DNA of 64,000 nucleotides from an uncultured delta proteobacterium (GCA_963808235.1 CAWEEQ010000004.1:2624001-2688000), one strand, 5' to 3'; positions 26,411-40,773 are shown, counted from the stretch's first letter. Notes: generated by a model from the sequence alone, not told the origin. Numbers and translations: made by a program.

Positions 26411-26866
26411 ATGTCTGACGACGCAAAGGTCGCCGAGCTTTCGCGGGTGCTGGGGCTGCTGCCCCATCGCTATCCATTTCTGCTGGTCGATCGGATCCTG
26501 GAAATCGGCAAGGGCCGGGTGGTGACTATCAAGAACGTCACCTTCAACGAGCCGTTCTTCGCCGGCCACTTTCCGGAGCGCCCGGTGATGCCGGGGGTGC
26601 TGATCGTCGAGGCGCTGGCGCAGTCGGGCGCAATCCTGGCGCTGAGCGAATTGGGTGCGAGCGCGAGCCGTCTGTTCATGCTTACGGGGCTCGACAAGGT
26701 GCGTTTTCGGCGCCGTGTGATTCCCGGCGATCAGCTTCGGATGGAAGTAAAAATTCTCAAATTTCATCGCCCGCTATGGCGAATGCAGGGCGTGGCGCGG
26801 GTCGGCGACGAGTTGGCGGCGGAGGCGGAGCTGTCCGCGATGGAAGTCCAGGAGCAAGTACCATAG
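26411..26866 (+). CDS. fabZ: 3-hydroxyacyl-ACP dehydratase
   Basis: LPHRYPFLLVD and GHFPERPVMPGVL motifs. Confidence 0.95.
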   Translation: MSDDAKVAELSRVLGLLPHRYPFLLVDRILEIGKGRVVTIKNVTFNEPFFAGHFPERPVMPGVLIVEALAQSGAILALSELGASASRLFMLTGLDKVRFRRRVIPGDQLRMEVKILKFHRPLWRMQGVARVGDELAAEAELSAMEVQEQVP

Positions 26867-27654
26867 CCGGCCGAATCCATCCTTCAGCGATCGTCGACCA
26901 AAGCGCCGAAATCGACACGAGCGTCGAAATCGGCGCCGGCACGGTCGTCGGGCCTGGCGTCAAAATCGGAGCCGGCACGGTAGTCGGCCCAAACGTGGTG
27001 ATCGAATGTCTCACCACTATCGGTAAGCGCAATCGAATCTTCCCGTTCGCCATGGTGGGCGCCGCTACTCCCGATTTAAAATTTCATGGTGAGCCGGCGA
27101 CGCTGGAGATTGGCGACGACAACACGATTCGCGAGTTCACCTCGATTCATCGCGGCACCGAGGTTGGCGGGATGCGCACGACCATCGGCAATCACGTGCT
27201 GATCATGCCGTACGTGCATATCGCCCACGACTGCGAGATCGGCGACAATTGCATCCTGGTCAACTCGACCCAGCTCGGCGGGCACTGCGTGCTGGAGGAA
27301 TTCGTGAATCTCGAAGGCATGAGCGGAGTGCATCAGTTCTGCCGCATCGGAGCTCACGCGTTCGTCGCGGCGGGCGCCAAGGTCGCGCAGGATGTGCCGC
27401 CGTACTCGATGGTGGCTGGCGATCGTGCGCGGCTGGCGGGTATCAACGAGATTGGACTGCAGCGCCGCGGTTTTGGTCCGGAAAAGATCCTTGCGATCAA
27501 AGCCGCGACCCGCACCCTGTTTTTTTCGAAGCTGCTCCGCGAAGAAGCGATCGCGAAAACTCTCGCGGACCACGGCGACCTCTTGGAGGTCCGCCGGCTG
27601 GTCGATTTCATCAACAACTCCAAGCGCGGAGTCGTTGGCCGCGAGCGTGAATAA
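26863..27654 (+). CDS. lpxA: Acyl-ACP:UDP-GlcNAc acyltransferase
   Basis: Hexapeptide repeats, IHP, HIAHDC and HQF motifs. Start uncertain: ATA 26863 behind a GGAG SD, or ATG 26776. Confidence 0.93.
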   Translation: MAGRIHPSAIVDQSAEIDTSVEIGAGTVVGPGVKIGAGTVVGPNVVIECLTTIGKRNRIFPFAMVGAATPDLKFHGEPATLEIGDDNTIREFTSIHRGTEVGGMRTTIGNHVLIMPYVHIAHDCEIGDNCILVNSTQLGGHCVLEEFVNLEGMSGVHQFCRIGAHAFVAAGAKVAQDVPPYSMVAGDRARLAGINEIGLQRRGFGPEKILAIKAATRTLFFSKLLREEAIAKTLADHGDLLEVRRLVDFINNSKRGVVGRERE

Positions 27655-28450
27655 GCTCGGGCTCATCGCGGGCAACGGTGTCTTTCCGCTCGAAGTGGCG
27701 CGCGCGGCGCGCGGCCGCGGACTCAAAGTCATCGCAATCGCGCATCTCAACGAAAGCGATCGCGCGATCGACAAGATCGCCGACGAAGTCACGTGGATCA
27801 AGGTCGGCGAGCTGCAGAAAATTATCGACGTGTTCAAAAAAGCCGGCGTCGCGGAAGCCGCGATGGCGGGCGGCATCTCGCGCGCTCGGCTCAAAGATTC
27901 GTTCGCACCTGACGCGCGCGCGCTCGCGATGCTCGCGAGCATCGGACGCTTCAGCGACGACGCGGTGCTGCGCGGAGTAGCGCGCGAAGTCGAAGCGGAC
28001 GGAATCAGGATGATCGATCCAGTTCCGATGATTCCGCACTGGCTGGCGCCGGCCGGTCTCGCCGCCGGACCGGAGCCGACTCCCGCGCAACTGCGCGATC
28101 TGGATCTGGCATTCGCAGTCGCGCGGCAGTTGGGGCAATTCGACATCGGGCAGACCGTAGCGGTACGTGATGGAGCGGTCGCGGCGGTCGAAGCGCTCGA
28201 GGGCACCGACGCGGCGCTGCGTCGCGCAGCATCGATCGTCGGCGCGGGACTGGTCGTCGCAAAAGCGGCCAAGCCCGGTCAGGACATCCGCTTCGATCGT
28301 CCCGCGATTGGACCTGCGACCATCGAGTTGCTTGCCGAGATCGGCGCGGCGATGCTCGGCGTCGAGGCCGGCATCGCGCTCATCCTCGAGCACGATCGCA
28401 CGCTGGAGCTGGCGCGCTCGAAAAACGTGGGCGTGTACGGCCATGCGTGA
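27647..28450 (+). CDS. lpxI: UDP-2,3-diacylglucosamine diphosphatase LpxI (DUF1009)
   Basis: LGLIAGNG.FP, DIGQTV, EALEGTD and QDIRFD.P.IG motifs. GTG start 27647. Confidence 0.92.
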   Translation: MNKLGLIAGNGVFPLEVARAARGRGLKVIAIAHLNESDRAIDKIADEVTWIKVGELQKIIDVFKKAGVAEAAMAGGISRARLKDSFAPDARALAMLASIGRFSDDAVLRGVAREVEADGIRMIDPVPMIPHWLAPAGLAAGPEPTPAQLRDLDLAFAVARQLGQFDIGQTVAVRDGAVAAVEALEGTDAALRRAASIVGAGLVVAKAAKPGQDIRFDRPAIGPATIELLAEIGAAMLGVEAGIALILEHDRTLELARSKNVGVYGHA

Positions 28451-29393
28451 GCTGCGCGCAGCCGTAGTCGGAGCAGGCCGCCTGGGCACGCTTCACGCGC
28501 GCAAGTACGCCGCGGTTGAGGGCATCAAGCTCACGCACATAGTTGACCTCGACGAAGGACGCGCACAGAGTGTCGCGTCGGAACTCGGGGCGACGCCGCT
28601 CGCCGATTATCGGTTGCTCGCGGGCAAAGTCGATCTTGTTACGGTGGCGTCGCCGGGCGTGACGCATCATGAGATCGCGTCGGCGATGCTGAAATCCGGA
28701 ATCGACGTGCTGCTCGAGAAGCCGATGGCGGAGACGCTGGCGCAGGCCCGCGAACTCGCGAAATTGGCGTCAGCGAGCGGGCGTATTCTTCAAATCGGGC
28801 ATCTCGAACGATTCAATCCGGCAGTCGTTCATCTGCATTCGATCGTGAAAAATCCGCGCTTCGTCGAATGCCATCGGCTGGCGCCGTTCACCGAGCGCGG
28901 CACCGACGTGGATGTCGTGCTCGATCTGATGGTGCACGATCTCGACGTGATCATGTCGGTCGCGCCGTCGGAAGTCGCCTCGCTGGAAGCTATCGGGGTC
29001 GCGATTCTCACCGATCGAATCGATCTCGCCAACGCGCGCATCCGCTTCCAGAGCGGGCTTATCGCCAACCTGGTGACGAGCCGCGTTTCCGCGCGGCGCG
29101 AGCGCAAGATTCGCTTCTTCCAGCCCGACGCGTATATCTCGGTGGATTACGAAGCGCGCAGCATCCAGCTTTATCGCAAGACTCCCGCCGCGCGCGGCGC
29201 GAACTTCCCGACTATTTCCGCGGAGCAGATAGAACTCGGCGAGGGCGATCCGCTCGCCGACGAGGTAAATGCGTTCGTCGATGCGGTGCGGCGCCGCTCC
29301 AAGCCCGCAGTCAGCGCCGAGGACGGGCTGCGGGTGATGGAACTAAGCGAGCGAATCAAGGACGTAATGCTGACCGACGCGATCGCGACTTGA
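28443..29393 (+). CDS. Gfo/Idh/MocA oxidoreductase (GnnA-like UDP-GlcNAc 3-dehydrogenase)
   Basis: VVGAGRLG, EKP, GHLERFNP and DLMVHD motifs; located between lpxI and lpxB. Confidence 0.85.
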   Translation: MRELRAAVVGAGRLGTLHARKYAAVEGIKLTHIVDLDEGRAQSVASELGATPLADYRLLAGKVDLVTVASPGVTHHEIASAMLKSGIDVLLEKPMAETLAQARELAKLASASGRILQIGHLERFNPAVVHLHSIVKNPRFVECHRLAPFTERGTDVDVVLDLMVHDLDVIMSVAPSEVASLEAIGVAILTDRIDLANARIRFQSGLIANLVTSRVSARRERKIRFFQPDAYISVDYEARSIQLYRKTPAARGANFPTISAEQIELGEGDPLADEVNAFVDAVRRRSKPAVSAEDGLRVMELSERIKDVMLTDAIAT

Positions 29394-29442
29394 CGCCTCC
29401 TTCCGGCTGCGCCAGCATTGACGTGGAGCTCCTGTTGAAAAA

Positions 29443-29889
29443 ATGCGTTCGACGAAATTCAAAATACTAGGCGGCGTCGTGCTCGCGGTGGGCGTGGGAT
29501 TCTTAGTCTTCACCTCGAGTTCAAACTGCCGGATGGTGACCGGCCGCGAGGCGGTCGACGTCAACGTATCCGCGATGCGTCCGGGAAGCGCGCAACTGTT
29601 TTGCTACACGGACGACGCGGGCAAAAGACTTCGCTTCGTGCTCGCGCGCGGCACCGACGGCAAAGTGCGCACCGTGTTCGACGCGTGCCGGCAATGCTTC
29701 ACGTTCCATCGCGGGTACCAGGTGGTGGGCGGCGAACTAATCTGCCGGGTATGCGGCAACCACTACCGCATCGATCGAATGGCCGAGGGCAAAGCGTCGT
29801 GCGTGCCGGCAAGCCTGCCGCATGAAGACGGGTCGGGGGTGGTGAGAATCAAGACCTCGGACTTGCAAGCCGGGCACGCGCTCTTCTAA
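29443..29889 (+). CDS. DUF2318-like membrane-anchored Cys-rich (putative Fe-S/metal) protein
   Basis: N-terminal TM; FDACRQC...YQVVGGELICRVCG...C. Confidence 0.8.
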   Translation: MRSTKFKILGGVVLAVGVGFLVFTSSSNCRMVTGREAVDVNVSAMRPGSAQLFCYTDDAGKRLRFVLARGTDGKVRTVFDACRQCFTFHRGYQVVGGELICRVCGNHYRIDRMAEGKASCVPASLPHEDGSGVVRIKTSDLQAGHALF

Positions 29890-29897
29890 GCAAATCC

Positions 29898-30509
29898 ATG
29901 AATCAAGGCCGCACCAGTCGTGTTCGCGGACGAGTCTTCTCGATCGTCGCCGTGGCGTTTCTGGTTGTTTTCTCGGCATGCAATCGGGAGGCGGCCGGCG
30001 ATTATCCGGCGGCGAACGGGAATAATTGCCTGCCCGATGTGAGTCTGATCGATCAGCACGGGAGTACTGTTTCGCTGGCCTCGCTGAAGGGCAAACCGGT
30101 GCTGATCGATTTCATCTACACGTCTTGCGCGTCGACCTGCCCGGTACTGACGGCGAAGATGGTGTCCGTGGCGCGCCAACTCGGCCCCGCTCTGGGAGCC
30201 AACGTGACGATTGTTTCGATTACGCTCGATCCCGAGCACGACGGTCCCGCGCAACTCGCGAGCTATGCGAAATCGCAAGGCGCCGACGCTCGTGGGTGGC
30301 TGTTTCTGACCGGCAAGCCCGCCCAAGTCGACCAGGTGCTCGCGCTGTTCAAGCTGCGGCGGATGCGCGAGAGCGACGGATCGATCACGCATTCGGTGTC
30401 GGCATTCCTGCTCGGTCCCGACGGCCACCAGGTTCGCCAGTACAATGCACTCAACGTCAACGCGAGCGCGGTAGTCGGCGATATCGATCGCTCGCGCGGC
30501 AAGAGTTAA
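29898..30509 (+). CDS. SCO family copper chaperone (lipoprotein)
   Basis: FIYTSCASTC (CxxxC), DPEHD and distal His; lipobox-like VFSAC. Confidence 0.9.
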   Translation: MNQGRTSRVRGRVFSIVAVAFLVVFSACNREAAGDYPAANGNNCLPDVSLIDQHGSTVSLASLKGKPVLIDFIYTSCASTCPVLTAKMVSVARQLGPALGANVTIVSITLDPEHDGPAQLASYAKSQGADARGWLFLTGKPAQVDQVLALFKLRRMRESDGSITHSVSAFLLGPDGHQVRQYNALNVNASAVVGDIDRSRGKS

Positions 30510-30512
30510 CCG

Positions 30513-30833
30513 ATGGCAACCTCGCTGGGAATCGATCGGCTCTCTATTCGTCAACTTGCCGGCGCGATGGCGCTGGTGATGATGATTGCGAGTCTGCCGG
30601 CGATCGGCGTGATCGTCATTGCCGATCGTGCGGGGCCAACTATATCGCTCGACATCTGTCATCCGCTGCAATCGCTCGACGCGTCACCAGGCGCCGTGTC
30701 GATCGCGCGCCCCGCGCAGCCGGAGATTGGCATCCAGATTCTTGCGCATGAGGCATTTGCCCAGTTTGTTCCCATTGCGAAGAGTAAATTCGCCGAGACT
30801 CCCGATCCGCCTCCGCCCAAGTCGCTCTGCTAG
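30513..30833 (+). CDS. Small membrane-targeted leader-like protein with C-terminal polyproline (CutF/CruR-like), copy 1
   Basis: Hydrophobic N-terminus, DICHP and C-terminal TPDPPPPKSLC; paralog of 33227-33541. Confidence 0.7.
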   Translation: MATSLGIDRLSIRQLAGAMALVMMIASLPAIGVIVIADRAGPTISLDICHPLQSLDASPGAVSIARPAQPEIGIQILAHEAFAQFVPIAKSKFAETPDPPPPKSLC

Positions 30834-30870
30834 ACGGACACCCTTACATTTTTTCGCAGATAGACGATTG

Positions 30871-30926
30871 CTCGCGGACCTCGACGGTTCGCGAGAGCAG
30901 GATACGGCCCGAGCTGGCCGCGGTGG
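30871..30926 (+). promoter_or_regulatory. Hairpins in the leader-to-OMP spacer 1
   Basis: Stem 30871-30880/30886-30895 and CGGCC/GGCCG 30905-30920, adjacent to a GGTGG SD. Confidence 0.5.
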
Positions 30927-30932
30927 ATGCTT

Positions 30933-31901
30933 ATGCGGAGGAATTTTGTTTTTGCGTTGATAGCCGTGCTGGTGTTGCGCGCGAGCGCGGCATCCGCGCA
31001 CGGAGTTGTGGGAGACTACGTGTTCCTTGAGCCGCTGGTGGCCGAGGATCCCACTCCCGCCAATGAGCTGGACATCCTGGCGCCATCGTGGGTCAGAAGC
31101 AGCGACGCTAATGACTACTCGATCGGATTCTCGGGCGAGAAAGTTCTTTGGATCGACGACAACTACATGCCGACATTCAGCCTGGCGGCCGGTACGGCGT
31201 GGCATCATGTTTCGCCGTTTAACATCTCTGTGCCGCGATCACGGGTCCTCGGAACGCTCGCCCCACTGCACACACCCAGCCACGAAGGAGTTGATAATCC
31301 GGAGGTAGCCGCAAAATGGGCCTTCTTCTATTCGCTGCCACATGAGTTTCTGACCTCGGTAGCATTGGTAGCCGACTTGCCGGTGGGCAACAGCGCGATC
31401 CGGAATCAGAGCCACACGAGCCTAGGTCCGGAACTGCTTATGGAAAAGGGTCTCGGCGACCTTCCCAATATGCCGGTGCTGAAATATCTTCGGCCGCTGG
31501 GACTCCAGGGCAACGTCGGTTATTTGCCGGCACTAGGCGGGCAGACCAGTCATGACCTGTTTGCCAATGCTGTGATTGAGTATTCGCTCCCGTACCTGAG
31601 CAACAATGTTCAGGATATTGGACTCAAGTGGCCGCTCCGCAACCTCTACCCGTTCGTGGAAATCAACTACGATCAACTGGTCAAAGGACCATCGGGCCAG
31701 ACATTCCCCTCGATCCTGGCGACCCCCGGCATCGCGTACGTCAGCTATCACTTCGAACTGAGCCTTGGCACTCAGTTCGCGCTCAACGACGCAGCCCGAC
31801 CCGGCACCCATGCCGCGGTGCTTGGTCTGCTGGACATTTTTTACGATTCGTTTTTCCCGAAATGGGGCAACTGGACTATCAATCGAGGACCCGGCCAATG
31901 A
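30933..31901 (+). CDS. Putative outer-membrane beta-barrel protein with mature N-terminal His
   Basis: Signal peptide ASA|HGVVGD, amphipathic beta-strand pattern, translationally coupled to copC. Confidence 0.65.
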   Translation: MRRNFVFALIAVLVLRASAASAHGVVGDYVFLEPLVAEDPTPANELDILAPSWVRSSDANDYSIGFSGEKVLWIDDNYMPTFSLAAGTAWHHVSPFNISVPRSRVLGTLAPLHTPSHEGVDNPEVAAKWAFFYSLPHEFLTSVALVADLPVGNSAIRNQSHTSLGPELLMEKGLGDLPNMPVLKYLRPLGLQGNVGYLPALGGQTSHDLFANAVIEYSLPYLSNNVQDIGLKWPLRNLYPFVEINYDQLVKGPSGQTFPSILATPGIAYVSYHFELSLGTQFALNDAARPGTHAAVLGLLDIFYDSFFPKWGNWTINRGPGQ

Positions 31902-32278
31902 AGACTTCGAAAATGTGCGTATCGGGTGCGGCGCTAGTTGCTATTGGGATGAGCTTTGCGATCGTGGCGTGGGCACATTCGTTTCCCGAGTCGGAGACTC
32001 CGTCGGCGGGACAAACGGTCGCATCCGCTCCCGCCGAGATAACGATCAACTTCGACGCTCCGATAGAGAAGCTGTTCGCCAAGCTGGAAGTGACCGGCGC
32101 CGACGGCAAGAACGAAGCGGCCGGCGCTCCGCAGATCAGCGACGACGGACGGCGGATGTCGGTGAAGGTCAACGCGCTCAAACCCGGCGACTACGCGGTC
32201 AAGTGGGCCGTCGTAGGTATCGATACGCATCATACGCAAGGCTCGTACACGTTCGCGATCGCAAGCGGAGGATCGTGA
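31898..32278 (+). CDS. copC: Periplasmic copper-binding protein CopC
   Basis: AWA|HSFP.SETP, YAVKW.VV..DTHH..GSY.F. Confidence 0.9.
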   Translation: MKTSKMCVSGAALVAIGMSFAIVAWAHSFPESETPSAGQTVASAPAEITINFDAPIEKLFAKLEVTGADGKNEAAGAPQISDDGRRMSVKVNALKPGDYAVKWAVVGIDTHHTQGSYTFAIASGGS

Positions 32279-33141
32279 TCGAACCAGCGGTAATTCTGGC
32301 CTGGCCATTGATCACGGCCCAGATCGTGATTTTTGGAACTGCGGCTTTTGCGCTGATGACATCACCTGGCGAGGTCCCGGGCGGCGATGGACCGACCCAC
32401 GCCCTCATCGTGCTATGGCGCGGACTGGCGCTTGCGATTCTTGCAATTTCGCCGGTGAGGTTCCTGGCCGTGGCGGCCGGCATGGCCGACACTACGTTGA
32501 AGGAAGCCATTCCATTTGTGCCGCAGATAATGCGCGAAACATTCGCCGGGCGGGTGTGGGCATGGCGACTCGGCGTCGACGCGATTCTGGCGATTGCGGC
32601 GTGGCTTCCAGCGCGTCGGAAGCTCCCGGTTCTGATCTCCGCGATTTCGTGCGCACTGCTCCTATTCCAGAGCGTCACGAGTCACGCGGTGGATAGCGGC
32701 GCGTACGCGATCGCAATTGTATTCATTCATCAGGTTGCCGCGGGCTTGTGGATCGGAGCGCTGGTAACCTTGCTGGTTGGAGCAACCTTCGGCCGCGCGG
32801 GCGCCGAGTGGCTCAAGTGGGCTTCGGGGCGAGTGTCAACGACTGCGGGATGGTCGGTAGCGGCGCTTGCCATCACCGGCGCGATCAGGGCGTGGTACGC
32901 GCTCGGACTGCGCTACGACCTGCTGGTGTATTCGCTCTACGGCCGCACCCTGCTCTGGAAGCTCGCGACCGCGGCAACGGTGATTCTGATCGGCGGATAC
33001 AACCGCTATCGCCTGGTGCCGGCAGTGGGCGAAGCGTCGGCGCGCACGACGCTGATTCATAATGTCACCCTGGAATGCCTGCTGCTGGCCGCGGTTCTCG
33101 GTTGGTCCGCGCTGCTGGCCAACACGCCGCCGCCGCATTGA
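32275..33141 (+). CDS. copD: Copper uptake membrane protein CopD
   Basis: TSHA, HQVAAGLWIG and YGRTLL.K...GGYNR motifs. GTG start overlaps the copC stop. Confidence 0.88.
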   Translation: MIEPAVILAWPLITAQIVIFGTAAFALMTSPGEVPGGDGPTHALIVLWRGLALAILAISPVRFLAVAAGMADTTLKEAIPFVPQIMRETFAGRVWAWRLGVDAILAIAAWLPARRKLPVLISAISCALLLFQSVTSHAVDSGAYAIAIVFIHQVAAGLWIGALVTLLVGATFGRAGAEWLKWASGRVSTTAGWSVAALAITGAIRAWYALGLRYDLLVYSLYGRTLLWKLATAATVILIGGYNRYRLVPAVGEASARTTLIHNVTLECLLLAAVLGWSALLANTPPPH

Positions 33142-33185
33142 CGAAAGTTTTGCGCCAGGCACCGCGATCGCGATGCCAATGGACA

Positions 33186-33214
33186 TTGAACTCGGGGGAC
33201 GGTTACTTTAGAAC
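33186..33214 (+). promoter_or_regulatory. Possible internal sigma70 promoter for the second module
   Basis: TTGAAC-N17-TAGAAC. Confidence 0.3.
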
Positions 33215-33226
33215 GGTAACTGCGCT

Positions 33227-33541
33227 ATGAGGCAATTCTTTTCAAAGGCGGACTTGCGGGACCTGAGTTTGGTCATGGCCATAGTGATGCTGTTGGCCAG
33301 CATCCCCGTGACTGAGGGGTTCGTCGTCGTCTCGAGGCCGAGCGGACCAGAATTGACCGCCAACATTTGCCAGCCGATTCAAATGTTCGACCGCGCGTCG
33401 AACACGTTGCTCGCGCGCCCCGCGGCCGTCGCGCCGGAGGTCGTTCTCTGCGATCTGGGCCCGGCCGCGATAAAGGAGACGGTGCGATTGGTCGACATCA
33501 AGATCGCTCCCGACACTCCGCCCCCAAAGAGCCTCGTCTAA
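33227..33541 (+). CDS. Small membrane-targeted leader-like protein with C-terminal polyproline, copy 2
   Basis: Hydrophobic N-terminus, NICQP and C-terminal APDTPPPKSLV. Confidence 0.7.
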   Translation: MRQFFSKADLRDLSLVMAIVMLLASIPVTEGFVVVSRPSGPELTANICQPIQMFDRASNTLLARPAAVAPEVVLCDLGPAAIKETVRLVDIKIAPDTPPPKSLV

Positions 33542-33572
33542 GAACTCTCGACAACGTTTCCTCTGATAGCCA

Positions 33573-33643
33573 CGCTGCGAACCTCGCGGCGGAAGGCGTT
33601 TTCTCTGAGGCAAGCGGCGCGCCGCAAGGTGTCCGCTGGGAGA
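33573..33643 (+). promoter_or_regulatory. Hairpins and anti-SD in the leader-to-OMP spacer 2
   Basis: Stem 33573-33591; GCAA-tetraloop hairpin 33613-33637 abutting a GGGAGA SD; TCTCT 33602-33606 is complementary to the SD. Confidence 0.5.
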
Positions 33644-33649
33644 TGTTCT

Positions 33650-34612
33650 ATGCGACGGAGTTATTGGGTTGCCCTGTTGGCAGGAGCGGCCGTTTTTCTG
33701 ATCGGCCTGACGCCCGATCTGAGCTGGGCCTGCGCTTGTGGATGTGGAGTCTACGAAGTCGGTACCGCAGCGTTGTTTCCGACCGACCACGGCGGAACGG
33801 TCTGGTTGGAGTATGACTACCAGGATCAGTACCTGAACTGGCATGCGACCCAAATCGCCTCAGGGGCCAAGAATGGCGACAAGAGAATCCGGACGCACTT
33901 TCTGACTCTCGGTGGTCAGTACATGTTCAACCGGAGTTGGGGAGTGCAGCTGGAGCTCCCGTACGCGTTTCGCTACTTCAAATCGACCAACGACGCCGGC
34001 CAGATTTTCGGGACCAACTTCAACACCATCGGGGACATCCGTATCCAAGGAATGTACACCGGGCTCTCGGAAGACATGTCGACGGGGCTGATGGCCGGCG
34101 CGAAGTTCCCGAGCGGATGGTGGACTTATCCGCATGCCGATCGAGACACCCAGATTGGCTCGGGGAGCACCGATCTACTGCTCTCGGCTTACCATCTCGG
34201 AACGTTTCCAACCCATGTTGGGAAGCTGCCGCTGACGTTCAGGGATCGCCCTTTCAACTGGTTTGTGCAGGCGTACGAGGATTTCCCGGTTTTCACGCAA
34301 GACCACTATACCCCGGGAAGGGAATTCGACTCGGCGCTGGGGGTCTACTACAACTTCGGCACGGTTGGCCCTTTGAAGGAACTCGCGCCGATGCTGACCT
34401 TTCTCGCTTCCGACCGCGCGCGTGACCAAGGCGCCTCTGCCAATCATGAGAACAGCGGCTATACGCGCTTTCTCATTGCTCCTGGAGCCGAGATCAAACT
34501 CGGAATCTTGCGACTATACGGAGACGTCGAGGTCCCGTTTTTTCAAAATATGATTGGTAATCAGATAACCGCGCCGCTCCTGTTCAAGACCATTGTAAGC
34601 TACGACTTCTAG
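33650..34612 (+). CDS. Putative outer-membrane beta-barrel transporter with mature N-terminal CACGC motif
   Basis: SWA|CACGC, GDI/PSG/GSGSTD pattern of MetA-pathway-like barrels, C-terminal YDF. Confidence 0.7.
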   Translation: MRRSYWVALLAGAAVFLIGLTPDLSWACACGCGVYEVGTAALFPTDHGGTVWLEYDYQDQYLNWHATQIASGAKNGDKRIRTHFLTLGGQYMFNRSWGVQLELPYAFRYFKSTNDAGQIFGTNFNTIGDIRIQGMYTGLSEDMSTGLMAGAKFPSGWWTYPHADRDTQIGSGSTDLLLSAYHLGTFPTHVGKLPLTFRDRPFNWFVQAYEDFPVFTQDHYTPGREFDSALGVYYNFGTVGPLKELAPMLTFLASDRARDQGASANHENSGYTRFLIAPGAEIKLGILRLYGDVEVPFFQNMIGNQITAPLLFKTIVSYDF

Positions 34613-34621
34613 GAGCATCAG

Positions 34622-35155
34622 ATGCGCTCAAAAATGTCCTGGTTCGCCGCAGTTGTTGCCGGGATCCTTGCGTTTGCCGGTTCCAGCACTTTCGCGCGCG
34701 CGGCCACCGATGTCGGTCAGCCCGCGCCCGCGCTGGTCGTGCCGGAACTGGACGGCCAGGCGTTTGACCTAAGTGCGATGCGCGGGAAGGTCGTAATCGT
34801 CAATTTCTGGGCCACCTGGTGTCCTCCCTGCCGCGAGGAGATGCCGGCCCTCGACAGTTTCTATCGGCGCTATCATGGTCAGGGGCTTGAAATGATCGGT
34901 CTCAGCTCCGACCGCCCGCACAATCGGTCCGACGTGACCAAGGTCATGCAATCATTCAGCTATCCGGCGGCGATGCTGGATGACGCCAAGGTCAACGAGT
35001 TCGGCACATCCAGCGTTCTGCCGATCACCGTCATCGTGGATAGAAATGGCGTGGTGCGCGCGAAGCTTACCCCCGATCAAACCCCGGTTACCGAGAAGAG
35101 TCTATCCGACGCGGTGCTACCGCTGCTGGCGCAAAGTTCGGCGGCGAATCCTTAG
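34622..35155 (+). CDS. TlpA-family thiol:disulfide oxidoreductase
   Basis: Signal peptide and NFWATWCPPC. Confidence 0.92.
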   Translation: MRSKMSWFAAVVAGILAFAGSSTFARAATDVGQPAPALVVPELDGQAFDLSAMRGKVVIVNFWATWCPPCREEMPALDSFYRRYHGQGLEMIGLSSDRPHNRSDVTKVMQSFSYPAAMLDDAKVNEFGTSSVLPITVIVDRNGVVRAKLTPDQTPVTEKSLSDAVLPLLAQSSAANP

Positions 35156-35162
35156 GCTCCCA

Positions 35163-35492
35163 ATGAAGACCTTCGCCTTACTCGCGATCATTCTGATGGC
35201 TGGATGCTCAGCCGCGAACACTCACACCGGTGATATGGATCCGAGGCTCGCTGACCTGGAAGCACAGAGGCAGACGATCGCCGGGCGCGAGAAAAAGTGC
35301 ATCGACGAAACGCAGGCGCGTAGCCATGATCAAGTGGAGCGCGATCGGGAAGTTTTGGAATGCCACGCGACGGCGCATCACGAAAACGCCGAAATCTCCG
35401 AGCAAGAGCGCAAAGAATATGAGCTTCAGGCGCAGGAGGAGAGGCATCGTGCTTCCCTTATGGCGATTCTTACGACCTCTCAGCCACGCTGA
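35163..35492 (+). CDS. Small helical lipoprotein, unknown function
   Basis: MKTFALLAIILMAG|C lipobox, two further Cys residues, coiled-coil character. Confidence 0.65.
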   Translation: MKTFALLAIILMAGCSAANTHTGDMDPRLADLEAQRQTIAGREKKCIDETQARSHDQVERDREVLECHATAHHENAEISEQERKEYELQAQEERHRASLMAILTTSQPR

Positions 35493-35497
35493 GGACT

Positions 35498-36139
35498 ATG
35501 AATGGAAGTAGAATGGATTCGAGTCGAACTGCAGCCGATCTTGTTCATATGACTTCAACAGTGTCGATCGCCAGTACTGATTCGGCGCGCATCCCACAGG
35601 GAGGGGGTCTCGGAATGCAGGTTCTGCGCGATCTCGGTGGGGTCGCGCTGCTCGCAATCGCGTCGCTCGCGGCTGGACTCGTGATTAACCGGTTTTCACA
35701 CGGCCCGCTTCCAGTCGTGTATCAGACGCCAGAGGAGCGGTTCGATGCCGAGCTGACGACTCTGGTCGCGGCGCCGCCGTTTAAGATCGCGCCCGCGGCA
35801 ACGGTCGGACTCGATGAATTCCGCAAGGCCGTCGAAAGCAAGAGTGCGCTCATCCTGGATGCGCGCCCGTCCGTGTTCTTCGAACAGGGACACGTCCCGG
35901 GGGCGCTCAATCTCGCGCGAGACGACTTCGCGCGCGACTATCGGAACTTGGCTGGCGTGCTGCAGGCCGCCCATGACAAACCGATCGTCGTGTATTGCTC
36001 CGGTGGCGACTGTCATGACAGCCGGCTGGTTGCGAACGCGCTGCTGAGTCTCGGCATCAACAATGTGACGATCTTCACCGGGGGTTGGAATGAGTGGTCG
36101 GCGGCCGGACTGCCGGCATCGACGGGGAGCGGACCATGA
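35498..36139 (+). CDS. Membrane-anchored rhodanese-like domain protein
   Basis: LDAR...F..GHVPGA, YCSGGDCHDS and GGWNEW motifs. A better start may be ATG 35615. Confidence 0.88.
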   Translation: MNGSRMDSSRTAADLVHMTSTVSIASTDSARIPQGGGLGMQVLRDLGGVALLAIASLAAGLVINRFSHGPLPVVYQTPEERFDAELTTLVAAPPFKIAPAATVGLDEFRKAVESKSALILDARPSVFFEQGHVPGALNLARDDFARDYRNLAGVLQAAHDKPIVVYCSGGDCHDSRLVANALLSLGINNVTIFTGGWNEWSAAGLPASTGSGP

Positions 36140-36624
36140 TGACGCTCGACAGCTCGCGCCGCTACGTCGTGTTGGCGATCAGCGCGGTGCTGGCCGGCGT
36201 GTTCATCTACGCGGGCATCGATAAGATTCGCGACCCGCTGCAGTTTGCGGATAGTATCGCGGCATTCGCGATCCTGCCGGTCGTGTTGATCAACCTGCCT
36301 GCGATCGGGTTGCCACCATTCGAGATAGGTTGCGCGCTCCTGTTGCTTCCGCCGGCGACCAGGCGGATCGGTGCGCTCGCCGTGGCTCTTCTGTCCGTCG
36401 TTTTCATGATCGCCCTGTCGTCCGCACTGCGTCGAGGTCTCACGCTCGACTGCGGATGTTTCGGGACCGGCGCGCCGTCGCGGCCGAGAATGTGGTTGGA
36501 GCTGGCGCTGGACGCAGGTTTGTTCGCGGGCGCGGTGTTCGTCTATTTGAGCTCGATCGCCCGCCTCTCCGCGCGGACGCCGTCTCTCTCTTCTTCACCG
36601 CAGCCTCAGGTTACAAACGAGTGA
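36136..36624 (+). CDS. MauE/DoxX-family redox membrane protein
   Basis: GVFIYAG..K and GLTLDCGCFG motifs. Confidence 0.88.
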   Translation: MMTLDSSRRYVVLAISAVLAGVFIYAGIDKIRDPLQFADSIAAFAILPVVLINLPAIGLPPFEIGCALLLLPPATRRIGALAVALLSVVFMIALSSALRRGLTLDCGCFGTGAPSRPRMWLELALDAGLFAGAVFVYLSSIARLSARTPSLSSSPQPQVTNE

Positions 36625-36654
36625 CCGGCGACAACAACAATCCAAATATCAGGA

Positions 36655-37266
36655 ATGGATGCAAATATGAGTATTCATCGTAGTCTCAGATCTCTAGCTA
36701 TCGTCGCAGCAATAACGTCGAGCCTGCTCGCGGTGACTGGATGCCATCGCGGCGCCGCCGCGGATGACGCGGCCGCCTCGAACTGCCTCACGGACACCAG
36801 CCTCATCGATCAGAATGGCGACAAGGTCTCGCTCGCGTCGCTCAAGGGCAAGCCGCTGGTGGTGGATTTCATCTATACGTCGTGTCCGGGGCCGTGCCTG
36901 ATGGAGACGGCGAAGCTGGCCAACGTCGCGCTTCGATTGGGAAGCGATCTCGGTTCAAAGGTCATGATCGTTTCGATCAGCGTCGATCCCGAGCATGACG
37001 GGCCCAAACAATTGCTCGCTTACTCGCGTCAGCAGGGCGCGGACGAGAAGGGCTGGTATTTCCTGACCGGAGGTCCCGGCGACGTCGACAAAGCGCTGGC
37101 GGGTTTCAAGCTCAGCAGGCAAATCGAACCCGATGGCTCGGTCGGGCACCTGGTCGATATGATGCTTATCGGACCCGACGGGCGGCTGGTTCATGAATAC
37201 AACGGCGAAGTCGTAAAAGCTCAGACTATCGTCGATGATGTCAGGAAGACCCTGAACAAGAGTTGA
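36655..37266 (+). CDS. SCO family copper chaperone (lipoprotein), second copy
   Basis: FIYTSCPGPC, DPEHD and GH; lipobox VTGC. Confidence 0.9.
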   Translation: MDANMSIHRSLRSLAIVAAITSSLLAVTGCHRGAAADDAAASNCLTDTSLIDQNGDKVSLASLKGKPLVVDFIYTSCPGPCLMETAKLANVALRLGSDLGSKVMIVSISVDPEHDGPKQLLAYSRQQGADEKGWYFLTGGPGDVDKALAGFKLSRQIEPDGSVGHLVDMMLIGPDGRLVHEYNGEVVKAQTIVDDVRKTLNKS

Positions 37267-37276
37267 AGGGTGCAGC

Positions 37277-37741
37277 ATGAGACGAGCAATCATTTTCGGA
37301 TCTTCGCTCGCGACGATTCTGGCGCTGGCATATTTGTGGCCGATGGTCGCTGGTTCGTCGGCGCAGAGCGGCGGTCCTCGCGGAGCGATGTGCGTCGCGG
37401 GCCATTGCTGCTGCTCGGGACGCGCAGAGGCGCAGACCGTCGCGGCTAACGAATCACAAGGCGCTCCGACGCTCGATCCAAAGCAGTTCGTGGGTCCGGT
37501 AAGAGAGGCGTACACATTTGCGGGGAAGGATCCCGCGCTGCTGGCGCAACTGCATTGCTACTGCGGATGCGACAAGGCGTTCGGTCATCAGAGCCTGCTC
37601 GATTGCTATCGCGGCACCCATGGAGCGACGTGCGAGGTCTGCACTCAGGAGGCGTTGCTGGCGAAGCGCATGTCGGAGCAAGGTTCGCCGGTCGATGAGA
37701 TACGCAACGCGATTCGCAGAAACTTCGCGCCCGACAATTGA
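37277..37741 (+). CDS. PCYCGC-motif (lipo)protein
   Basis: HCYCGC...H.SLLDCY...HGATCEVC; additional CVAGHCCC. Confidence 0.85.
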   Translation: MRRAIIFGSSLATILALAYLWPMVAGSSAQSGGPRGAMCVAGHCCCSGRAEAQTVAANESQGAPTLDPKQFVGPVREAYTFAGKDPALLAQLHCYCGCDKAFGHQSLLDCYRGTHGATCEVCTQEALLAKRMSEQGSPVDEIRNAIRRNFAPDN

Positions 37742-37795
37742 GTTGCGGGGGACAACCTATTTGCGACGTCGTGCTTTTCAATCACAATCGCTTCG

Positions 37796-38983
37796 ATGCG
37801 ATTGAATGCCGAAGCACAGCGACCGCCAGGTGACCGCCTGAAGGAAACCGAACGCCGACGCCGAATCATGATCGTGGCGGGCGAGGCGTCGGGCGACCTT
37901 CATGGCGGCGACCTGGCGCGCGAGATCGCGGCGCGCAATCCGGGCTGCGAACTGTTCGGAATAGCCGGCGAGAAGATGCGCGCGGCGGGAGTGCGAGCGC
38001 TGGTCAGGATGGAGGATATCCACGGGCTCGGACTCTCCGAACTCGCCTCGACGATCGGACGCACGGTTTCCGCGTTTCGCGAGCTGCGGAGGATCATCAA
38101 GCGCGACAAGCCCGACCTCGTGATCCTGATCGATTACGCCGAATTCAACCTGATTCTCTCCGGCACCGCCCGGCGCGCGGGCGTGCCAGTGCTCTATTAC
38201 ATCACGCCGCAGGTGTGGGCGTGGCGGCGCGGGCGCGTCGACAAGCTGGTCGATCGCGCGGACCGTCTCGCGGTGGTGCTGCCATTCGAGAAGGAGCTGT
38301 TTCATCGCGCGGGCGAGCGGGTTTCATTCGTCGGGCATCCTTTGCTTGACCGCGTCGCGAAGGTGTCGAGTCGCGCGGAGACGTTGAAGCTTCACGGATT
38401 TTCACCAGGAGCACGACTGATCGCGATTCTGCCCGGGAGCCGCCGCGCGGAAGTTCGCTACCTGCTGAAGCCGATGGTGGAGGCGGCGCGGATCATTGCG
38501 CGCGACAATAACCTGGAAGTAGCGCTCGCGCTCGCGCCGACGCTGACCCGCGACGAACTTGCCGCGGTCGGGCGCGCAGATCTCGCCGGAGTGCGAATTG
38601 TCGAGAACGATACGTATAGTATTGTCGCCGCGAGCCAGCTTGCGCTGGTGGCGTCGGGGACTGCCACGCTCGAGACGGCGCTGCTCGGATGCCCCGAGGT
38701 GATCGCTTACAAAGTCTCGCCACTTACCTATATTCTAGGGCGGATGCTTGTGACCGGAGTGGATTTTATCGGGATGCCGAACATATTGGCGGGCCAGCAA
38801 ATTGTGCCGGAACTGATCCAGGGCGAGGTGACCGTGGAAAACCTCGTGCGGGCCGCCGAGCCGCTGCTCAGCGATACGATTCGCGCCGAAACAGTAACGG
38901 CGCTCGGCGCGCTGCGTGACAAGCTGGGCGCTCCGGGAGCCGCCGGCCGCGTCGCCGAAATTGCGCTGAGCATGATCGCATGA
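37796..38983 (+). CDS. lpxB: Lipid-A-disaccharide synthase
   Basis: AGEASGDLHG, PQVWAWR, LPFE, VGHP, LPGSR and SGTATLE motifs. Confidence 0.96.
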   Translation: MRLNAEAQRPPGDRLKETERRRRIMIVAGEASGDLHGGDLAREIAARNPGCELFGIAGEKMRAAGVRALVRMEDIHGLGLSELASTIGRTVSAFRELRRIIKRDKPDLVILIDYAEFNLILSGTARRAGVPVLYYITPQVWAWRRGRVDKLVDRADRLAVVLPFEKELFHRAGERVSFVGHPLLDRVAKVSSRAETLKLHGFSPGARLIAILPGSRRAEVRYLLKPMVEAARIIARDNNLEVALALAPTLTRDELAAVGRADLAGVRIVENDTYSIVAASQLALVASGTATLETALLGCPEVIAYKVSPLTYILGRMLVTGVDFIGMPNILAGQQIVPELIQGEVTVENLVRAAEPLLSDTIRAETVTALGALRDKLGAPGAAGRVAEIALSMIA

Positions 38984-40773
38984 AGATGCTCACCCCATTG
39001 CAATTGCGCATGCTCGGATACCTCCGCCGGTACATGTTTCCCTACGTGGTATTGCTTGCAATCGCGATGCTCACGCTGTCAGCGGCTACCGGGGGCGTGC
39101 CGGTGCTGGTACGGATGGTGGTCGATCTCGGGACCAGTCTCGGCGTTTCGCATCGTCTCGATAGGCACGGCGCCTTCATGCTGCGGGAATACTCGCTGGT
39201 GCTGGCGGGACTATTTTTGCTCCGCGCGATCGCCAATTTCTCCGATGACTATTTGAGCGCCTACATCGCCCAGAAGGTCACGATGGATCTTCGCGCCGAT
39301 CTCAACGAAAGCCTGCAACGCCAATCGCTCAGCTTTTTCAATCGCACCCCGACTGGAGTGATGGTTTCACGCGTGATCAATGATGTGAACCTCGTCACGC
39401 AAGCCATCACCAACGGAGTATTTTCCGTCTTCGGCGGCGGCGCGTCGCTGATAGTGCTTCTCGTGGTCGCATTCAAGCTCGATTGGCGGCTGGCGATTGT
39501 CGCCTTTATCGGTTTCCCAATCGTCGTCATTCCGATCGTAAGTCTTTCCAAGAAAGTGCGCCGCGAGACCAAGAATTCACAGAAGCAAATGAGCGGCCTG
39601 CAATCGCTGCTGCACGAAACCTTCCAGGGAAACCGCGTCGTCAAGGCGTTCGGGATGGAAGATTACGAGCGCAAGCGATTCAACCGCGAGCTGAAGCGCC
39701 TGTTTCGAATCTACCTGCGCGTCGCGCGAATCAAAGCGTTTACCGGTCCGCTGATCGAGGCGATGGGGGCGTTCGCGGTCGTGGCGGTCGTATGGTGGGC
39801 GATGGGCTCGCTGCAATCGGGCGCGCGCACGCTCGGTCAATTCGCCGGTTTTTTCACGGTGATGATCCTGGTGTACCCGCCCTTCAAGAGCGTCAGCAAG
39901 ACCAACAACACCATCCAGCAGGGGCTCGCCGCCGCCGAGCGCGTCTTCGAAATGATGGATCATCCGAGCGATGTGCCCGACAATCCCGATGCGACGGAGC
40001 TAGCGCACGGCCCGCATAGCATCGCGTTCGAAAACGTGAGTTTCAGATACGGCGAGGAATGGGTGCTGCGCGATATCAACCTCGAGATTGGCGCGGGCAA
40101 GGTGGTGGCGCTGGTCGGGATGAGCGGTGGCGGCAAATCCACGATCGCGGACCTGATTCCGCGCTTCTATGACGTTCAGAAAGGGCGCGTAACGATCGAC
40201 GGAATCGACGTGCGCAACCTGAAAATTGCATCGCTACGCGCGGAAATCGGCCTGGTCACTCAGCATACGTTTCTCTTCGACGACACGATTCGCGACAACA
40301 TCGCGTACGGCAGCGGCGACCGGAAACTCGATCGGCTGAGCGCGGCCGCCAAGCTCGCCAACGCGCACGACTTCATCTCACGGCTGCCGGCGGGCTACGA
40401 GACGATGGTCGGTGAGCTGGGCGTTCGCATGTCGGGCGGCGAGCGCCAGCGTATCGCGATCGCGCGCGCACTCTTGAAGGACGCACCGATCCTGATTCTC
40501 GACGAAGCGACTTCTTCACTCGACTCGGAGTCAGAACGATCGGTGCAGGAGGCGCTCGAGCATCTGATGGCGAATCGAACCACGCTGGTGATTGCGCATC
40601 GCTTGTCCACCGTGCGCCGCGCGGATCGAATTGTAGTGATCGTCCACGGTCGAATCGTCGAAGAGGGAACTCACGACGAGCTGTTCGCGCGGGGCCGCGA
40701 ATATCGCAAACTTTACGATCTCCAGTTCATGTCGCCCGAGGATCTCGCCGGCAACGGCGGACTCGTCAACTGA
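38980..40773 (+). CDS. msbA: Lipid A flippase ABC transporter
   Basis: TMD plus NBD (GMSGGGKST, SGGERQR); lies in the lpxB-waaA-lpxK context. Confidence 0.9.
   Translation: MKMLTPLQLRMLGYLRRYMFPYVVLLAIAMLTLSAATGGVPVLVRMVVDLGTSLGVSHRLDRHGAFMLREYSLVLAGLFLLRAIANFSDDYLSAYIAQKVTMDLRADLNESLQRQSLSFFNRTPTGVMVSRVINDVNLVTQAITNGVFSVFGGGASLIVLLVVAFKLDWRLAIVAFIGFPIVVIPIVSLSKKVRRETKNSQKQMSGLQSLLHETFQGNRVVKAFGMEDYERKRFNRELKRLFRIYLRVARIKAFTGPLIEAMGAFAVVAVVWWAMGSLQSGARTLGQFAGFFTVMILVYPPFKSVSKTNNTIQQGLAAAERVFEMMDHPSDVPDNPDATELAHGPHSIAFENVSFRYGEEWVLRDINLEIGAGKVVALVGMSGGGKSTIADLIPRFYDVQKGRVTIDGIDVRNLKIASLRAEIGLVTQHTFLFDDTIRDNIAYGSGDRKLDRLSAAAKLANAHDFISRLPAGYETMVGELGVRMSGGERQRIAIARALLKDAPILILDEATSSLDSESERSVQEALEHLMANRTTLVIAHRLSTVRRADRIVVIVHGRIVEEGTHDELFARGREYRKLYDLQFMSPEDLAGNGGLVN

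Follow-up and report, generated by a model that had tools for sequence, protein, structure and literature searches.

We describe a family of small proteins, found almost only in the Binataceae, whose members are probably cis-acting leader peptides of the type represented by CutF and CruR: each would be a sensor that is exported while it is being translated and whose nascent chain sets the expression of the gene downstream. Two members, the products of the small open reading frames (ORFs) A and B, lie in the window, i.e., the stretch of 64,000 nucleotides (nt) from an uncultured delta proteobacterium analysed here (GCA_963808235.1, CAWEEQ010000004.1:2624001-2688000). Each of these ORFs is followed by a structured spacer and then by a gene encoding an outer-membrane protein (OMA after ORF A, OMB after ORF B), within an island of copper and thiol-redox genes. 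Our observations concern the anatomy of the proteins, their conservation, the rule that spaces an invariant Cys from an invariant Pro-Pro-Pro (PPP) motif, their linkage to neighbouring genes, and the conserved hairpins of the spacers. The family is new; control of gene expression by leader peptides is already known for other proteins. Our literature searches, which left aside the supplementary tables of the CutF and CruR papers, found no description of this family.

Anatomy and distribution of the small proteins

ORFs A and B are paralogous (37% identity over 100 residues, BLASTP E = 6e-17), as the initial annotation of this DNA had proposed. Their coordinates were confirmed, and the motifs that it listed are visible in the alignment of the two proteins: R-x-L...MA-x-VM-x-x-AS-x-P, GP...IC-x-P-x-Q-x-x-D, ARPA, and PD-x-PPPKSL-x-stop. 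The resemblance is no chance effect, because word-indexed searches of public protein sets identified 198 relatives of A and 218 relatives of B at E ≤ 0.01. Nearly all of them are exactly 106 or 104 amino acids (aa) long and, where a source is named, they come from Candidatus Binatus or from Binataceae. Neither protein matched a Pfam family at E ≤ 1 or any NCBIfam model.

The joint profile of A and B matched 140 sequences at E ≤ 0.001 among 1.84 billion cluster representatives. We found matches in four genomes of a 301-genome sample of the phylum, all four from the window's own taxonomic family, and in none of the 297 others. When one genome per species was scanned, 53 loci were found; their titles read Binatus, Binataceae or uncultured (delta)proteobacterium, with the exception of one 2.4-kb contig binned as Acidiferrales. 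The family is thus confined almost only to the Binataceae, which are abundant uncultured bacteria of soil and peat. The genome of the window encodes only the two copies described here.

Both proteins start with a basic region, after which about 23 residues are hydrophobic (translations of the ORF listing). This may be an export signal, either a cleavable signal or an anchor. The existing gene call for ORF B in this genome (P0122) starts at M17 and is 88 aa long. Since the first 16 residues are kept in homologues, we favour the 104-aa form and the call looks too short. The ATG of ORF B at 33227 has no clear Shine-Dalgarno (SD) sequence and follows copD after a gap of 85 nt.

To describe the anatomy of the family we used 118 representatives (one per 50%-identity cluster, full-length and with an assignable Cys). 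The distance from the Cys to PPP is 50 residues in 56 of them, 51 in 47, 52 in ten, 49 in four and 53 in one (standard deviation 0.73), and the distance from the initial Met to the Cys varies (standard deviation 11.4). The middle 30 residues of the linker between Cys and PPP are rich in Ala, Pro and Leu, and have a mean identity of 13%. An AlphaFold2 model based on the family alignment shows a helix (residues 9-26), a beta-hairpin (33-46) and no secondary structure from residue 47 to residue 106 (predicted local distance difference test, pLDDT, of 76; predicted template-modelling score, pTM, of 0.34). Given this fixed spacing, the low identity and the lack of a predicted fold, the length of the linker seems to be under selection, but not its sequence. 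The protein thus has three parts: a sensor-like N-terminal one, a linker selected for its length, and a Pro motif whose distance to the stop codon is fixed.

The initial annotation had also pointed to a conserved PPPK tail and to a single Cys in place of CxxC or CxxxC, and both observations extend to the family, with some freedom in the Lys. Only Cys49 and the prolines 100-102 are invariant in an alignment of 98 sequences; the 118 representatives, too, have a single invariant Cys, mostly within D-I-C-H-P. Exactly four residues separate PPP from the stop codon in 99 of the 118. K, E or R directly follows PPP, two variable residues come next, and the logo of 101 tails reads A-P-[DE]-[PTS]-P-P-P-[KER]-x-x-[AV]. 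The last residue is Ala in 40 and Val in 25 of the 101. A non-polar C-terminus is a feature recognised by tail-specific proteases, and the Ala/Val ends would fit a rapid removal of the released peptide. In the larger set of 140 representatives, PPP lies at most ten residues from the C-terminus in 120 cases. Four others have an interrupted motif at the same place (P-R-P-P, P-Q-P-P or P-T-P), 13 have no such tail, their C-termini being apparently truncated or diverged, and three are long unrelated proteins that the profile matched in many short stretches.

Two other roles for such a small protein were considered and rejected. A sorting signal similar to PEP-CTERM would require a helix after the Pro motif, which is lacking. 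A precursor of a metallophore or of a ribosomally synthesised and post-translationally modified peptide was discarded as Pfam and NCBIfam name no modifying enzyme among 14 ORFs examined in the island.

Gene linkage and structured spacers

We counted the genes next to 84 copies of the family, found in the window and in 80 fetched loci. The next gene within 260 nt encodes OMA (34) or OMB (42) in 76 of the 84 copies, at a distance of 60-190 nt; these counts are not independent events, because the loci come from related genomes. A conserved position upstream of an exported protein of the copper island, as anticipated by the initial annotation, is therefore the rule, the exported protein being an outer-membrane barrel. 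Of the remaining eight copies, two lie too close to a contig end for a call, one precedes the gene of an unrelated FMN-binding protein, one precedes SCO1, and four have an FtrD-like gene as their first recognised neighbour downstream. In three of these four (L024, 5457-5807; L038, 5411-5782; L042, 5436-5840) the leader and its spacer stand before the gene of an exported YHS-like protein of 116-134 aa, itself followed by an FtrD-like gene and a second leader. These proteins match the YHS family below the Pfam cut-off (E between 2e-5 and 3e-4) and have the motif C-x-x-C-G-M...Y-Y-F-C. Upstream of the leader, the nearest recognised gene is SCO1 (35 copies), FtrD-like (28) or CopD (1), i.e., one of these three in 64 of the 84 copies.

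The leader, its spacer and the start of the following gene seem to move together. On a tree of the type-A leaders (27 loci) the next gene is OMA in 12 cases and OMB in 15, and well-supported branches force at least three switches between the two, e.g., L010 (followed by OMA) and L013 (followed by OMB) are sisters with 100/96 support. The alignment of the type-A loci shows that leader, spacer and the first few codons of the cargo gene are conserved as one unit, irrespective of the barrel encoded. OMA and OMB have no detectable similarity (BLASTP E = 0.69, hhalign probability 1.3%). Hence, the description of the window as two duplicated cassettes is accurate for the leader and the architecture, but not for the cargo genes, which are not detectable paralogues.

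The lengths of the spacers depend on the start codons of the cargo genes. The ORF listing extends their frames to 30927 and 33629; we took the ATG at 30933 for OMA and at 33650 for OMB, because SD-like sequences (GGTGGA and GGGAGA, respectively) are placed 5-6 nt upstream and a signal peptide starting with MRR follows. With these starts, the spacers of 99 and 108 nt that had been noted from the sequence were confirmed, as was the signal-peptide outer-membrane gene after each leader, and folding gave the two hairpins abutting the SD. Both hairpins of each spacer are GC-rich and the second one ends 1 nt from the SD-like site. Of the 76 spacers before OMA or OMB, 72 are 89-138 nt long. Type-A leaders end with TAG, the next nucleotide being C, in 23 of 25 cases (it is A after TAG in the window, and the stop is TAA in L004), and type-B leaders end with TAA in 18 of 22.

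The spacers are more structured than coding sequence. The folding z-scores of the two window spacers taken alone are modest (-1.2 for A and -2.3 for B). Over 72 spacers the mean z-score, relative to dinucleotide shuffles, is -0.86, with 43% below -1; coding controls of equal length have a mean of +0.10, with 13% below -1. In 22 type-B spacers, hairpin 1 has standard pairs in 76% of the cells and changes on both sides in three pairs, and hairpin 2 has standard pairs in 84% of the cells and changes on both sides in five pairs. The full type-B structure, in which a candidate anti-SD helix is counted to give 25-26 pairs, has standard pairs in 77.5% of the cells, against 32-53% when the partners are slid by 1-3 columns. 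Of 500 shuffles, at most one equals the native spacers in pairing or covariation score, a result that relatedness alone can cause. The two types both keep their hairpins, type B with compensatory changes.

Two candidate structures were dropped. The pairing of the Pro codons with the start of the type-A cargo, suggested by RNAalifold, consists of four invariant pairs, and neighbouring wobble changes break the longer helix. Hairpin 1 was considered as an intrinsic terminator, and a terminator scan flagged neither of the window hairpins.

Proposed co-translational control and its alternatives

From these observations we infer export, stalling, a ligand, and the route and sign of control, as follows. 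The N-terminal hydrophobic helix would bring the nascent chain to the membrane. Elongation would slow down once the invariant PPP is reached, four codons ahead of the stop, at which point the invariant Cys (in D-I-C-H-P or N-I-C-Q-P) would lie about 50 residues from the peptidyl-transferase centre. Since exit tunnel and translocon together span approximately 50 residues, the Cys would be placed at the periplasmic mouth. Its state, i.e., free, bound to Cu(I), or engaged with SCO1, TlpA or CopC proteins, would set the dwell time of the ribosome, and this would be relayed to the downstream channel gene by the structured spacer of about 100-120 nt. The relay could take two routes. In the first, following the logic of CruR and TnaC, the stalled ribosome would cover the C-rich, G-poor stretch at the stop codon and thereby block Rho. 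In the second, following the logic of CutF and SecM, the spacer and the translation-initiation region would be remodelled. The genes for EF-P and Rho are both present in this genome.

A number of observations weigh against this reading, and part of them concern the spacer. Structure upstream of the SD does not generally mask it: the unpaired probability of the SD is 0.33 in native spacers and 0.35 when the upstream part is shuffled (p = 0.13), and it rises to 0.41 with the 30 nt that follow the stop codon masked. In cassette B the post-stop element is predicted to pair with the SD, and the unpaired probability rises from 0.02 to 0.29 and 0.44 when 13 and 30 nt, respectively, are masked; in cassette A it is 0.51, i.e., the predicted masking is absent. 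Type-B spacers have two candidate anti-SD elements (the post-stop CUUUC, and UUUCCC located 15-25 nt after the stop, each with GGGAGA as partner), which pair in 64-88% of the cells and show little covariation. The type-A hairpins are kept with no compensatory pair among 25 sequences, which are so close that covariation is hard to judge. Finally, all 76 copies have a stretch with more C than G over the last 40 nt or so of the ORF and the stop codon, which resembles the Rho-loading region reported for cruR, although the Pro codons largely account for this bias. The interpretation of the initial annotation as a whole, with leaders that sense a signal and gate the next gene, is partly supported: the comparative tests (distinctness from DUF2946, tail, position and hairpins) favour it, as does the constant distance between Cys and PPP, a hallmark not listed in that annotation, but masking of the SD is not general in silico.

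Alternatively, small protein and spacer may be functionally unrelated. The hairpins could be sites of mRNA processing or stability, or of transcription pausing or attenuation, which would set the ratio of upstream to downstream product, the Pro tail having no role in control. Hairpins that are kept but exclude an SD for which no general masking is predicted would be consistent with this, as would spacers that have no match in Rfam (none at E ≤ 1 within 29000-38000). Many type-B spacers have a T-rich run after hairpin 1, loosely resembling a terminator, but the type-A hairpin 1 has no such run, and the terminator scan was silent on both window hairpins. This explanation would also leave without reason the fixed spacing between Cys and PPP, the exact distance of four codons between PPP and the stop that 99 of the 118 representatives share, and the joint movement of leader, spacer and initiation region. 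We regard it as very unlikely.

The other points against a cis-acting leader concern the protein. A PPP motif by itself need not cause stalling in a cell that has EF-P. There is only one conserved Cys and the residue after it varies, so that binding of copper is not evident: of the 118 representatives, 86 have His at this place, 15 have Gln and 17 another residue (the second residue after the Cys is Pro in 105), and 72 have no second Cys in the linker. The small ORFs are internal to operons, unlike CutF and CruR, and in nine of the 26 metagenome copies the FtrD-like gene overlaps the start of the small ORF by 4 nt. Within each orthologous group the whole small protein is about 70% identical, which also fits a mature protein with a function of its own. 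Four loci (L015, L016, L018 and L020, at about 9200-10300) have a second OMA gene behind a MauE-like gene and without a leader, so that the barrels are not always placed behind one.

The small ORFs might thus encode stable proteins involved in copper trafficking, anchored in the membrane or located in the periplasm. Such a tether or hand-over peptide would consist of an extended chain of about 65 residues anchored to the inner membrane through the N-terminal helix, with the Cys near the membrane and the P-D-x-P-P-P-K tail presented to a partner (e.g., the barrel, SCO1 or the FtrD-like protein), and the fixed length would be a physical distance rather than a ruler set by ribosome and translocon. 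The tight gene order, with its frequent 4-nt overlap with the FtrD-like gene, suggests stoichiometric co-expression, and the position inside operons and the conservation of the whole protein also favour a stable product. Yet, the same type of leader precedes two dissimilar barrels, and also YHS-like or SCO1 genes, and it is inherited along with the spacer and the first codons of the cargo. The extended chain has a pLDDT of 62-80, as in peptides that bind a partner, but it includes a linker with hardly any constraint on its sequence and without a predicted fold. The frequent Ala or Val at the end might allow a protein to recognise the free C-terminus, but the number of residues after PPP is fixed even though the residues vary, and protein contacts alone can hardly account for this. 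Behind the small ORF there is always a spacer, about 100-120 nt long, in which hairpins are conserved. Stable copper-trafficking proteins, the main rival reading, are an unlikely explanation in our view, if less so than unrelated spacers. A complex prediction for small ORF A (residues 30-106) with OMA (residues 23-322) gave a score of 0.00, which is evidence neither way.

The leader reading can be compared with systems in which nascent chains are known to control expression. CutF of Rhodobacter capsulatus, the DUF2946 leader of cutFOG, is a Sec-exported ORF with a CxxxC motif and the C-terminal sequence P-E-P-E-G-P-P-P-R-L (PMC9973294; 10.1101/2025.02.05.636593). Copper on the nascent chain is described as holding the ribosome at PPP against EF-P, after which the cutO stem-loop that hides the SD melts (10.1101/2025.02.05.636593; PMC9973294), and control depends on EF-P and on PPP, whose change to PAP abolishes it (10.1101/2025.02.05.636593). 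The family described here resembles CutF in being a small ORF, with putative export, that has a Cys motif and a structured spacer before a copper gene. The tails are also alike: P-E-x-P-P-P-R two residues from the stop in CutF, and P-[DE]-x-P-P-P-[KER] plus three residues here. The two differ in that CutF has additional Cys residues besides CxxxC whereas the family has one conserved Cys, and in that CutF matches DUF2946 whereas none of 98 members do. As described, CutF heads its operon and its stem-loop holds an anti-SD, whereas the ORFs studied here are intra-operonic and masking of the SD is not general. The cargo is a multicopper oxidase there, and an outer-membrane barrel here.

CruR (Bp2923) of Bordetella pertussis, also a DUF2946 protein, is the upstream ORF (uORF) of bfrG. 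Its CXXC and RAPP motifs are spaced by 45 residues, a distance kept within 1-2 residues that matters for regulation (PMC9426467). The stalled ribosome is reported to block Rho; the gene under control encodes an outer-membrane transporter, and little structure is predicted for CruR itself (PMC9426467). The fixed distance between Cys and Pro motif (45 residues there, 49-53 here), the outer-membrane cargo, the long intergenic region, the stretch with more C than G at the end of the ORF, and the poorly structured protein are all shared with our family (PMC9426467). From a length of 145 residues, C93 and 45 intervening residues we derive that the arrest motif of CruR lies about three residues before the stop, which is also similar. 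CruR differs by having CXXC and RAPP where our family has C-H-P and PPP, and by an action reported to be independent of the signal peptide and of EF-P (PMC9426467). Rho termination has been demonstrated for CruR and is conceivable here. Moreover, its cargo is a TonB-dependent transporter, as opposed to a 12-strand barrel similar to COG4313 and FapF.

Like these proteins, the secretion-monitoring arrest peptides SecM, VemP and MifM and the RAPP peptides ApdA and ApdP have an N-terminal signal for export or insertion and a C-terminal arrest motif (PMC9973294; PMC10987492). Their arrest is tuned beyond the membrane and the output is read through downstream mRNA structure (PMC9973294). They monitor the export machinery and precede sec or yidC genes, whereas the neighbours here are copper and thiol-redox genes, and the conserved Cys suggests a chemical signal, unlike in secretion-monitoring peptides.

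A last comparison is with TnaC of the tna operon. This leader is a short ORF at whose end a held ribosome covers a Rho-loading site beside the stop codon, which is similar to the hold proposed here at the end of the ORF, over a stop-proximal Rho-loading site. TnaC is different in being a cytoplasmic peptide that senses tryptophan within the tunnel and stalls at the stop codon itself.

The relation to DUF2946 deserves separate mention, as the initial annotation had proposed a distinct family. Several features associated with DUF2946 leaders were found: a Pro motif near the stop, a fixed spacing (118 of 118) and a copper context (SCO1, CopC, CopD, TlpA-like and YHS-like proteins). Others were lacking, namely a match to PF11162, the CXXC/CxxxC motif, and the first position in the operon. 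None of the 98 members matched PF11162 even at E ≤ 10, and this profile had no match in the window's own genome nor in 201 genomes of the phylum sample. Since the geometry is shared but the PF11162 profile test and the other tests of membership failed, we class the family as working like CutF and CruR and not as a member of DUF2946, with which it is possibly convergent. A more specific version of the leader reading is also more tentative, and we hold it to be possible rather than probable. It describes a convergent, lineage-specific sensor coupled to the translocon and not homologous to DUF2946, which would read the periplasmic state through a single Cys, placed by a 50-residue ruler at the mouth of the translocon during the halt of the ribosome on PPP. 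It would act as a portable module within operons, exchanged at least three times between channel genes that are unrelated, and transferred to YHS-like and SCO1 genes as well. In this version the signal could be the thiol-redox state of the Cys, or a Cu(I) bridge to SCO1 or TlpA, rather than simple chelation.

So far, copper-sensing uORFs that act by arrest comprise two studied proteins of one Pfam family, and these are reported to work in opposite ways. If the leader reading is true, a second family outside DUF2946 with the same geometry, i.e., a Cys as sensor, a Pro motif shortly before the stop codon and, between them, a linker that is fixed in length but free in sequence, would show that this geometry is the functional principle. 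The family would also offer a large natural series of mutants for studying how events beyond the membrane hold or release the ribosome: the Cys is followed by His, Gln or Glu, PPP is followed by K, E or R, and more than 100 unrelated linkers have one length.

Cargo proteins and the copper island

OMA and OMB are unstudied barrels and candidate copper channels of the Binataceae. The sequence behind the predicted signal peptide begins with H-G-V-V-G-D in 29 of 30 OMA orthologues (with H-G-I-V in the other one) and with C-A-C-G-C in all 38 OMB orthologues. The N-terminal His and the C-A-C-G-C sequence are possible metal sites, and the first Cys of OMB could be a lipidation site, the preceding residues being loosely similar to a lipobox. 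Most OMB orthologues led by a type-B leader (L051, L048 and others) have a longer pre-sequence, M-R-R-I-S-E-L..., with about 45 residues before C-A-C-G-C; the OMB of the window (33650-33730) lacks about 17 of these residues, in frame.

An AlphaFold2 model of OMB based on 29 orthologues is a beta-barrel (pLDDT 75.6, pTM 0.74). The best structural matches in Foldseek are FapF (5o68, E = 1.5e-8) and the COG4313 channel of Pseudomonas putida (4rl8, E = 5.5e-8, template-modelling scores of 0.59/0.69). This fold was seen in the model of OMB only. Together with the N-terminal His of OMA or C-A-C-G-C of OMB, the modelled barrel suggests that the two proteins may be metal importers. PF13557 (Phenol_MetA_deg) matched neither protein at E ≤ 1, and the only Pfam matches were far below the cut-off (Stealth_CR4 for OMA, E = 0.18; OMP_b-brl for OMB, E = 0.056). 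Searches of the PDB with the OMA and OMB profiles gave nothing below E = 0.5. The Atlas provides leads only, in the form of clusters near OMA and OMB with PF13557 on 21% and 13% of their members, respectively; OMA adjoins unnamed clusters, the nearest named one being that with 21%.

The copper and thiol-redox island covers positions 29443-37741 on the plus strand, and Table 1 gives its genes as named by Pfam and NCBIfam. It is flanked by genes for lipid A: lpxA, lpxI and a GFO/IDH/MocA oxidoreductase upstream (26776-29393), and lpxB and an MsbA-like ABC transporter gene downstream (37796-40773). The island looks like an insertion into the lpx cluster. The remark that its other genes are much more closely spaced than leader and cargo is accurate for most of them, as gaps are otherwise at most 30 nt, but not for the gap of 85 nt before small ORF B.

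Table 1. Features of the two cassettes and of the surrounding island, in window coordinates.
Feature	Position	Strand	Basis or remark
FtrD-like PF10080 protein	29443-29889	+	Pfam; upstream gene of cassette A
SCO1/SenC	29898-30509	+	Pfam; stop 3 nt ahead of the start of small ORF A
Small ORF A, 106 aa	30513-30833	+	ORF listing; stop TAG
ORF A, Cys49 in D-I-C-H-P	codon 30657-30659	+	after the N-terminal hydrophobic helix
ORF A, P-D-P-P-P-P-K, PPPP codons	30807-30818	+	K and three further codons, then TAG
Spacer A, 99 nt	30834-30932	+	between the stop of small ORF A and the ATG of OMA
Spacer A, G-poor conserved stretch	after stop	+	type-A alignment
Spacer A, hairpin 1	30871-30895	+	RNA folding
Spacer A, hairpin 2	30905-30920	+	RNA folding
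Spacer A, SD-like GGTGGA	30922-30927	+	5-6 nt before ATG 30933
OMA outer-membrane gene, 322 aa	30933-31901	+	signal peptide; mature N-terminus H-G-V-V-G-D-Y
CopC-like gene	31901-32278	+	Pfam/NCBIfam; between both cassettes
CopD gene	32275-33141	+	Pfam/NCBIfam; between both cassettes
Small ORF B, 104 aa	33227-33541	+	ORF listing; stop TAA
ORF B, Cys48 in N-I-C-Q-P	codon 33368-33370	+	after the N-terminal hydrophobic helix
ORF B, P-D-T-P-P-P-K, PPP codons	33518-33526	+	K and three further codons, then TAA
Spacer B, 108 nt	33542-33649	+	between the stop of small ORF B and the ATG of OMB
Spacer B, post-stop element	33542-33549	+	can pair with 33640-33648
Spacer B, hairpin 1	33573-33591	+	RNA folding
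Spacer B, hairpin 2	33613-33637	+	RNA folding
Spacer B, SD GGGAGA	33638-33643	+	5-6 nt before ATG 33650
OMB outer-membrane gene, 320 aa	33650-34612	+	signal peptide; N-terminus C-A-C-G-C; barrel model
Remainder of the island: TlpA-like thioredoxin, 109-aa protein, rhodanese, MauE/DoxX-like, second SCO1, CYCXC/PCYCGC protein	34622-37741	+	

The gene at the 3' end of the island (37277-37741) matches the NCBIfam model of the CYCXC family (seleno)protein with 114 bits, for a cut-off of 90. This protein has Cys at the motif position, and its gene neighbours SCO1.

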